From Escherichia coli (GTDB lineage Bacteria; Pseudomonadota; Gammaproteobacteria; Enterobacterales; Enterobacteriaceae), in assembly GCF_002854065.1 (NCBI RefSeq), contig NZ_CP024147.1: 64,000 nucleotides of DNA. One strand, written 5' to 3'. The translations under genes were made by a program, and so were the position numbers. The notes beneath the pieces were generated by a model. That model ran no database searches and had not been told where the DNA came from. It worked only from the letters and a program-made list of their open reading frames with translations. Below, one piece after another: positions 11,400-11,690 of this stretch (the stretch's first letter is position 1; each line of letters starts with the position of its first letter).

Positions 11400-11690
11400 T
11401 TTAGTTGCCAGCAGGTATTATATCGCCATAGATGCTACGAATATTATTGGATTCTCCTTATTATTTGCGGCGCTTTTTTCACTTACCGGAGGTTATATGG
11501 AACCTGATCCCACGCCTCTCCCTCGACGGAGATTAAAACTTTTCCGGTAAGCCCGTCTTTTCACGGCGTTACCGGATGCGTAAGGCCGTGACGTTTTAAC
11601 GTCCCTGCTCAGCTTTATTACCTTCAGGTAAGGCTTCGCCACGCCTGAAGACATTTCTGTACTGTTTCAGACAGTGCGGAGGGACTCCTT
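11400..11690 (+). promoter_or_regulatory. mgtA 5' leader (Mg2+/proline-responsive attenuation region)
   Basis: Long leader upstream of mgtA containing the proline-rich mgtL mini-ORF; known regulatory architecture in enterobacteria. Confidence 0.55.
11497..11550 (+). CDS. mgtL: mgtA leader peptide ([17 protein letters not shown])
   Basis: 17-codon proline-rich ORF read directly from the sequence at the 3' end of a longer spurious ORF, in the mgtA leader. Confidence 0.75.

Follow-up and report, generated by a model that had tools for sequence, protein, structure and literature searches.

The mgtA leader of Escherichia coli: the leader peptide gene mgtL, its alternative RNA structures and its enterobacterial relatives

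We analysed a stretch of Escherichia coli DNA of 64,000 nucleotides, referred to below as the window, and found that the segment immediately upstream of mgtA is almost certainly the mgtA 5' leader, which carries the leader peptide gene mgtL, is preceded by PhoP-dependent promoter elements and can adopt two alternative RNA conformations, stems A and B on the one hand and stem C on the other. The element is already known: it is a textbook case that both RefSeq and EcoCyc annotate, and K-12 carries an identical copy. The reading put forward in a preliminary description, which was made from the sequence and identified the segment as the established translation-coupled attenuation device of mgtA, was supported with three refinements, i.e. 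the leader contains no intrinsic terminator, the signal in E. coli is described mainly as acting through the EPDP motif and EttA, and direct binding of Mg2+ by the RNA is disputed.

Results

Identity of mgtL and of the mgtA leader

The coding and leader features of the locus are as follows.

11497..11550, + strand: mgtL, 17 codons plus TAA (sequence; RefSeq mgtL has identical coordinates)
11488-11492, + strand: Shine-Dalgarno sequence of mgtL, GGAGG, in or adjoining the 5' arm of stem A (sequence)
11482..11597, + strand: Magnesium-II, the Mg2+-responsive mgtA leader element, consisting of the stem A three-way junction and stem B (Rfam RF01056)
11678..11683, + strand: Shine-Dalgarno sequence of mgtA, GGAGGG (sequence)
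11691..14387, + strand: mgtA, encoding an Mg2+-importing P-type ATPase of 898 aa, the regulated gene (NCBIfam TIGR01524; RefSeq)

The mini-ORF extends from the ATG at 11497 through the TAA ending at 11550 and reads ATG GAA CCT GAT CCC ACG CCT CTC CCT CGA CGG AGA TTA AAA CTT TTC CGG TAA. The encoded peptide begins MEPDPTPLP, with proline at codons 3, 5, 7 and 9 and the acidic residues E2 and D4 of the EPDP motif. Thus, the 17-codon proline-rich ORF of the preliminary description is present where it had been placed, in the mgtA 5' leader. RefSeq records that match the window label it 'mgtA regulatory leader peptide MgtL' (WP_001387276.1) and give the gene order treR, mgtL, mgtA, with the mgtA start mapping to 11691. 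The arrangement in K-12 MG1655 is identical, mgtL being b4702 and mgtA being b4242.

A Megablast search with nucleotides 11300-11800 found this region in 5,425 of 5,426 complete E. coli genomes, many at 100% identity. Within the same interval the window differs from K-12 by only four substitutions, two of them upstream of the transcript (11355 and 11408) and two inside mgtA (11750 and 11788); the transcribed leader has zero base differences from that of MG1655. An Rfam scan of the whole window identified RF01056 with a score of 125.8 bits (gathering score 40, E = 5.5e-25), and the match was full length, covering model positions 1-115 of 115. The product of the downstream gene scored 1607.5 bits against NCBIfam TIGR01524, an equivalog model for the magnesium-translocating P-type ATPase with a cutoff of 610.75. 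The RF01056 match, the RefSeq peptide and the TIGR01524 gene downstream all bear out assignment of the segment to the established mgtA leader device, and every defining feature of RF01056 and of the MgtL family that was open to testing was found.

The mgtL stop codon lies 140 nt upstream of the mgtA ATG, and the corresponding distance was ~140-155 nt in most of the relatives described below in which a long ORF was detected. In the minimum free energy (MFE) fold of the full leader, the mgtA Shine-Dalgarno sequence pairs with residues 11600-11605.

Promoter elements

Two promoter elements were identified upstream of the leader.

11387..11403, + strand: predicted PhoP box, direct repeat GGTTTA-tcgtt-GGTTTA, replacing the -35 element (regular expression (T/G)GTTTA-N5-(T/G)GTTTA)
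11416..11421, + strand: -10-like hexamer TATTAT, 12 bp downstream of the PhoP box (sequence)

The predicted PhoP box has the sequence GGTTTAtcgttGGTTTA at 11387-11403; we take the GGTTTA repeat to be a PhoP binding site on the basis of known PhoP-activated promoters. A scan of the region with the sigma-70 consensus found no full -35/-10 promoter and no -35 consensus. PhoP-activated promoters usually lack a -35 element, and such an outcome is expected where a promoter is activator-dependent; the result of the sigma-70 scan is not evidence against a promoter at this position. From the geometry of the promoter and a leader length that we assume to be ~264 nt, we infer that transcription starts at about 11427-11428. 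The interval 11400-11690 originally assigned to the leader agrees approximately with the positions of the PhoP box and the TATTAT hexamer at one end and the mgtA ATG at the other. Control of mgtA by PhoQ/PhoP has been described in the literature, and PhoP/PhoQ would constitute a second, promoter-level layer of Mg2+ control in addition to that exerted in the leader.

The substitution at 11408 is a single C/T difference from K-12 that falls within the 12 bp separating the PhoP box from the -10 hexamer. The allele present in the window is common to many complete E. coli genomes that match at 100% identity, and the difference probably has no effect on promoter strength.

Alternative RNA structures of the leader

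RNA corresponding to 11427-11700 was predicted to fold with a free energy of -88.0 kcal/mol (z = -3.98 compared to shuffled sequences). The following structures were identified.

11482..11551, + strand: stem-loop A, which encloses mgtL; outer helix 11482-11490 with 11543-11551 (MFE, Rfam structure line, RNAalifold)
11499-11501/11508-11510 and 11517-11521/11528-11532, + strand: inner hairpins of stem A (same evidence as stem A)
11561..11591, + strand: stem-loop B, 11561-11573 with 11578-11591, part of the 'off' conformation (MFE, covariation, RNAalifold)
11543..11576, + strand: stem-loop C, the 'on' conformation, UCCGGUAA at 11543-11550 with UUACCGGA at 11569-11576 (constrained folding)
11553-11556 with 11563-11566, + strand: inner 4-bp helix of stem C (constrained folding)

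The mgtL stop codon (11548-11550) is situated inside the 3' arm of stem A (11543-11551). The 8-bp core of stem C is built from the 3' arm of stem A and the 5' arm of stem B, and formation of stem C is therefore mutually exclusive with formation of stems A and B. Constrained folding in three sequence contexts yielded differences in free energy between C and A plus B of +3.5, -2.4 and +1.4 kcal/mol, suggesting that the two conformations are close to isoenergetic. When successively longer nascent transcripts were folded, stem C was the MFE structure with the RNA 3' end at 11578-11585 and stems A plus B were the MFE structure with the 3' end at 11592-11600; A plus B overtook C at 11592, once the 3' arm of stem B had been transcribed.

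The effect of a ribosome translating mgtL was simulated by masking a footprint of 28 nt, a crude thermodynamic model rather than a kinetic one. With the P site on any of codons 1-12, including the proline codons, stem C persisted. A ribosome at the end of the ORF, with the stop codon in its A site and codon 17 in its P site, covered the 5' arm of stem C, and stem B formed. The modelled outcomes match the logic of the published attenuation scheme, as a sketch and not as kinetic proof.

RNA structure prediction had been proposed in the preliminary description as a check of the assignment, and absence of the alternative stem-loops typical of the mgtA leader as the finding that would count against it. 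The stem-loops are not absent; stems A and B and the mutually exclusive stem C were all found, nearly isoenergetic and, as described in the next section, conserved.

Conservation of the structures and of the leader peptide

Relatives of the leader were collected with a DNA-pattern scan, built on conserved Rfam positions, of one genome per species. The scan returned 104 stretches, and 80 distinct enterobacterial leaders were kept after chance matches had been removed. Matches in Chloroflexi, Streptomyces and Myxococcales, which lacked the ATG or the short ORF, were rejected as chance. The retained leaders span Escherichia, Salmonella, Citrobacter, Klebsiella, Raoultella, Enterobacter, Kluyvera, Kosakonia, Leclercia and other genera, and the mean column identity of the alignment was 69%.

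Stems A and B are maintained in this set. The outer helix of stem A was paired in 98.3% of alignment cells across the 80 distinct sequences, while stem B was paired in 92.7% of cells and contained compensatory double changes in 7 of its 12 base pairs. For the A plus B structure as a whole 91.2% of cells were paired, compared to 35-46% when the partners were slid by 1-3 columns. RNAalifold, run with no supplied structure, recovered both stems with 8 covarying pairs. A 7-bp core of stem C was paired in 96.1% of cells in the same 80 sequences; however, its arms are nearly invariant and show almost no covariation, and as both arms are invariant the covariation test is uninformative for this stem. 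The comparative data are compatible with stem C without being proof of it, and such invariance is what would be expected if each arm pairs in two helices.

The mini-ORF is also maintained. Its length was 16-18 codons in all 80 relatives, its stop codon was TAA in 79 of them, and the GGAG of its Shine-Dalgarno sequence was unchanged in 81/81 aligned leaders. Because the search pattern itself specified codons 2-6, their conservation among the relatives reflects ascertainment and was not counted. Among the relatives with 17 codons (n = 62), every one had Arg17, 60 had Pro7 and 43 had Pro9, and positions 13-15 were free to vary. The Rfam consensus, which is independent of our search pattern, places its variable positions at the wobble sites of codons 2-9 with a period of 3.

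Proposed mechanism of mgtA control

The attenuation scheme and its dependence on Mg2+ and proline have been described in the literature. According to this scheme, when Mg2+ is sufficient the ribosome would read mgtL to its stop codon and cover the segment that serves both as the 3' arm of stem A and as the 5' arm of stem C, such that stem B forms; the A/B conformation would then allow premature termination before mgtA. When Mg2+ is low, the ribosome would be destabilised and drop off within the first nine codons, at the EPDP or proline-rich sequence, and a shortage of proline, EF-P or tRNA modification would make it stall at the proline codons. Either event would leave the 3' arm of stem A available to the 5' arm of stem B, giving stem C, which would make the terminator inaccessible and permit transcription of mgtA.

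Translation of mgtL and its control of mgtA in MG1655 are supported by published data from reporter assays, toeprinting and translation in vitro. In this strain the ribosome is stabilised by EttA when Pro3 occupies the P site, and the E2Q/D4N changes in MgtL abolish expression of an mgtA reporter. The signal in E. coli is accordingly described mainly as Mg2+-dependent ribosome destabilisation at EPDP that is modulated by EttA, with proline supply not being the sole input.

Whether the leader RNA binds Mg2+ directly, or Mg2+ is sensed only through mgtL translation, is still debated in the literature. In its exclusive form the former possibility would make the leader a pure Mg2+ riboswitch that binds the ion and changes between A/B and C independently of translation, the mini-ORF being incidental. 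Rfam types RF01056 as a riboswitch aptamer, our calculations place the two conformations at nearly equal energy with no ribosome present and, for Salmonella mgtA, Mg2+-dependent folding of the RNA alone is reported to be enough to modulate Rho-dependent termination in vitro. However, an incidental ORF would not be expected to keep its length, its Shine-Dalgarno sequence, Pro7 and Pro9, its terminal Arg and the placement of its TAA in stem A across 80 leaders while its central residues drift, nor to impose a wobble-position periodicity on the Rfam consensus. The published E. coli results, in which mutation of E2 and D4 eliminates reporter expression and EttA works via translation of mgtL, also argue against it. 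We therefore consider the exclusive riboswitch very improbable. As the riboswitch is a rival only in that form, the two mechanisms may coexist, and our preferred reading remains control through translation of mgtL.

Termination in the leader

A terminator scan found no intrinsic terminator inside 11427-11690; its only match, at 11265-11281, lies within treR. Because an intrinsic terminator is absent, premature termination was assigned to Rho, as it is in published work. Published Term-seq coordinates were converted to window positions using mgtL as the anchor (K-12 4467431 = window 11497), which located two RNA 3' ends.

11642, + strand: Term-seq RNA 3' end, MG1655 4467576, 49 nt upstream of the mgtA ATG (PMC7815308)
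11556, + strand: Term-seq RNA 3' end, MG1655 4467490 (PMC7815308 supplement)

The 3' end at 11642 lies in a region scored as one of significant Rho termination (Rho score 1.56, 'Yes'; PMC7815308 supplementary file 3), and its intrinsic terminator score of 1.46 is below the cutoff of 3.0 (PMC7815308). Rho-dependent termination of mgtA is reported to have been shown in Salmonella. Two other papers state that such termination of mgtA went undetected in E. coli or 'may not be conserved' there. A Rho step in E. coli is the best-supported option, although a disputed one.

Two stretches of the transcript have a C-rich, G-poor composition. One, at 11597-11626 (+ strand), is downstream of stem B and contains 33% C and 10% G (C/G 3.3), and the other is inside mgtL at 11497-11536 (C/G about 2.5). 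Both would suit Rho loading and are compatible with putative rut sites, a class that composition alone does not define.

The abundant 3' end at 11556 is given as the 'primary' one for mgtL (PMC7815308), and falls 5 nt beyond the base of stem A, immediately 5' of a U run. Its position ahead of the U run suggests that the RNA was trimmed as far as the base of this stem. Given this end, a short stable leader RNA may accumulate. We consider it improbable that a stable mgtL RNA of ~130 nt acts in trans, as an sRNA or sponge, in addition to attenuation in cis, or that termination in E. coli is Rho-independent, unlike that in Salmonella; both ideas draw on the existence of this 3' end and on the conflicting reports in the literature.

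The 3' end at 11556 also bears on whether the leader is a classical attenuator of the trp/his type, in which transcription would end at an intrinsic hairpin followed by a U tract rather than by the action of Rho. The general design of a leader peptide with alternative hairpins is shared with such attenuators, and downstream of stem A, directly after that end, there is a short run of U residues (CUUUU, 11557-11561). However, stem A is a long three-way junction and not a compact GC hairpin, the leader lacks a terminator-like site, and the 3' end 49 nt upstream of mgtA falls below the intrinsic cutoff within a region flagged as Rho-dependent. A classical attenuator is thus highly improbable, and termination by Rho is the option that we retain for the E. 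coli leader.

Long ORFs overlapping mgtL

The mechanical ORF list did not contain mgtL and instead gave two longer ORFs in the region.

11209..11550, + strand: spurious 113-aa GTG ORF masking mgtL, with which it shares its stop codon (mechanical ORF list)
11493..11654, - strand: spurious antisense 53-aa ORF across the leader (mechanical ORF list)
10365..11312, - strand: treR (TIGR02405, 590.7 bits)

The GTG start at 11209 is inside treR, which is on the opposite strand. The in-frame open stretch 5' of the mgtL ATG ranges from 5 to 107 codons among the 80 related leaders, and the extension of the 113-aa ORF is therefore not conserved. This result confirms that, as the preliminary description had indicated, mgtL is hidden in the ORF track by a longer spurious ORF. 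The antisense ORF is likewise unconserved, the longest antisense ORF in the relatives ranging from 0 to 53 aa, and neither ORF is annotated by RefSeq in the matching genomes, including K-12. Although both appear in the mechanical list, there is practically no chance that either is the real gene and the 17-codon reading an artefact, as neither is kept in relatives or annotated in RefSeq and the 113-aa ORF runs antisense to treR.

Other features of the window

Several features elsewhere in the window were recorded in the course of the scans. Within 40360..64000, the tRNA-Leu(CAA) gene leuX (40360..40444) precedes a rarely found integrated island. Of the 5,426 complete E. coli genomes, a single one matches 40000-64000 over 80% or more of its length, at 99.9% identity; it is NZ_CP178662.1, from a South African chicken isolate. 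The island is annotated in that genome with a tyrosine integrase, a type I restriction-modification system (hsdR/M/S), an AAA ATPase with a hypothetical protein, and a convergent PD-(D/E)XK nuclease with an argonaute/piwi-family protein of 743 aa; the backbone genes yjhP, topAI and mdtM come after the island. The arrangement suggests a candidate prokaryotic Argonaute defence operon within a leuX island.

Rfam families other than RF01056 were matched as well. Ysr276, a Yersinia sRNA family described as 'antisense', gave a full-length match at 29151..29345 (+ strand) with 180.8 bits (gathering score 100), which may represent conserved coding sequence. The REP-derived family naRNA4 (nucleoid-associated ncRNA 4) matched at 1354..1431, 28146..28221 and 28242..28317 (+ strand) with 70-80 bits compared to a gathering score of 59.5. 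Two of the three naRNA4 matches are in tandem, and they are ordinary E. coli REP/BIME repeats.

Discussion

The practical value of this locus is that of a positive control, i.e. a functional 17-codon gene that was absent from a mechanical ORF list was recovered when the sequence was first read. The wider questions that it touches are the use of Rho in the E. coli leader and the sensing of Mg2+ by RNA, by the ribosome or by both.

The leader can be compared with several known systems. The M-box of Firmicutes (ykoK, Rfam Magnesium-I) is likewise a leader RNA and also governs genes for Mg2+ transporters, but its RNA fold is unrelated to that of the mgtA leader and it has no leader peptide; an Rfam scan found no M-box match in the window. 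As in trpL, hisL, pheL and tnaC, the position of the ribosome on a short leader ORF selects an RNA structure or the accessibility of a rut site and thereby determines read-through. Whereas the trp, his and phe leaders have intrinsic terminators and runs of cognate codons, the mgtA leader has no intrinsic terminator and relies on Mg2+- and proline-dependent elongation at its EPDP or proline-rich motif.

A closer likeness is the corA leader of Salmonella and E. coli, which lies outside the window. According to the literature, this leader has a very similar three-way junction with an embedded upstream ORF, corL, as well as alternative structures and Rho-dependent termination. corL differs from mgtL in its UUG start codon and its fewer proline and acidic codons, and it precedes a different transporter gene.

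The closest counterparts are the mgtA leaders of Salmonella enterica and of E. coli K-12. The mechanism was worked out for the Salmonella leader, which likewise has a 17-codon ORF in stem A, followed by stem B and the alternative stem C. Rho-dependent termination is documented for Salmonella mgtA, whereas it has been questioned in E. coli. The Salmonella MgtL peptide differs from that of the window; MDPEPTPLPRWRVFLFR occurs once in our set, and locus L026 of S. enterica subsp. arizonae has the matching GAC and GAA codons at positions 2 and 4. Comparison with the Salmonella and E. coli leaders had been proposed at the outset as a check of the assignment, and both comparisons agree with it: the arizonae locus aligns along the entire length of the leader, and the K-12 leader matches base for base, with the same peptide, the same PhoP box and the same coordinates relative to treR and mgtA.
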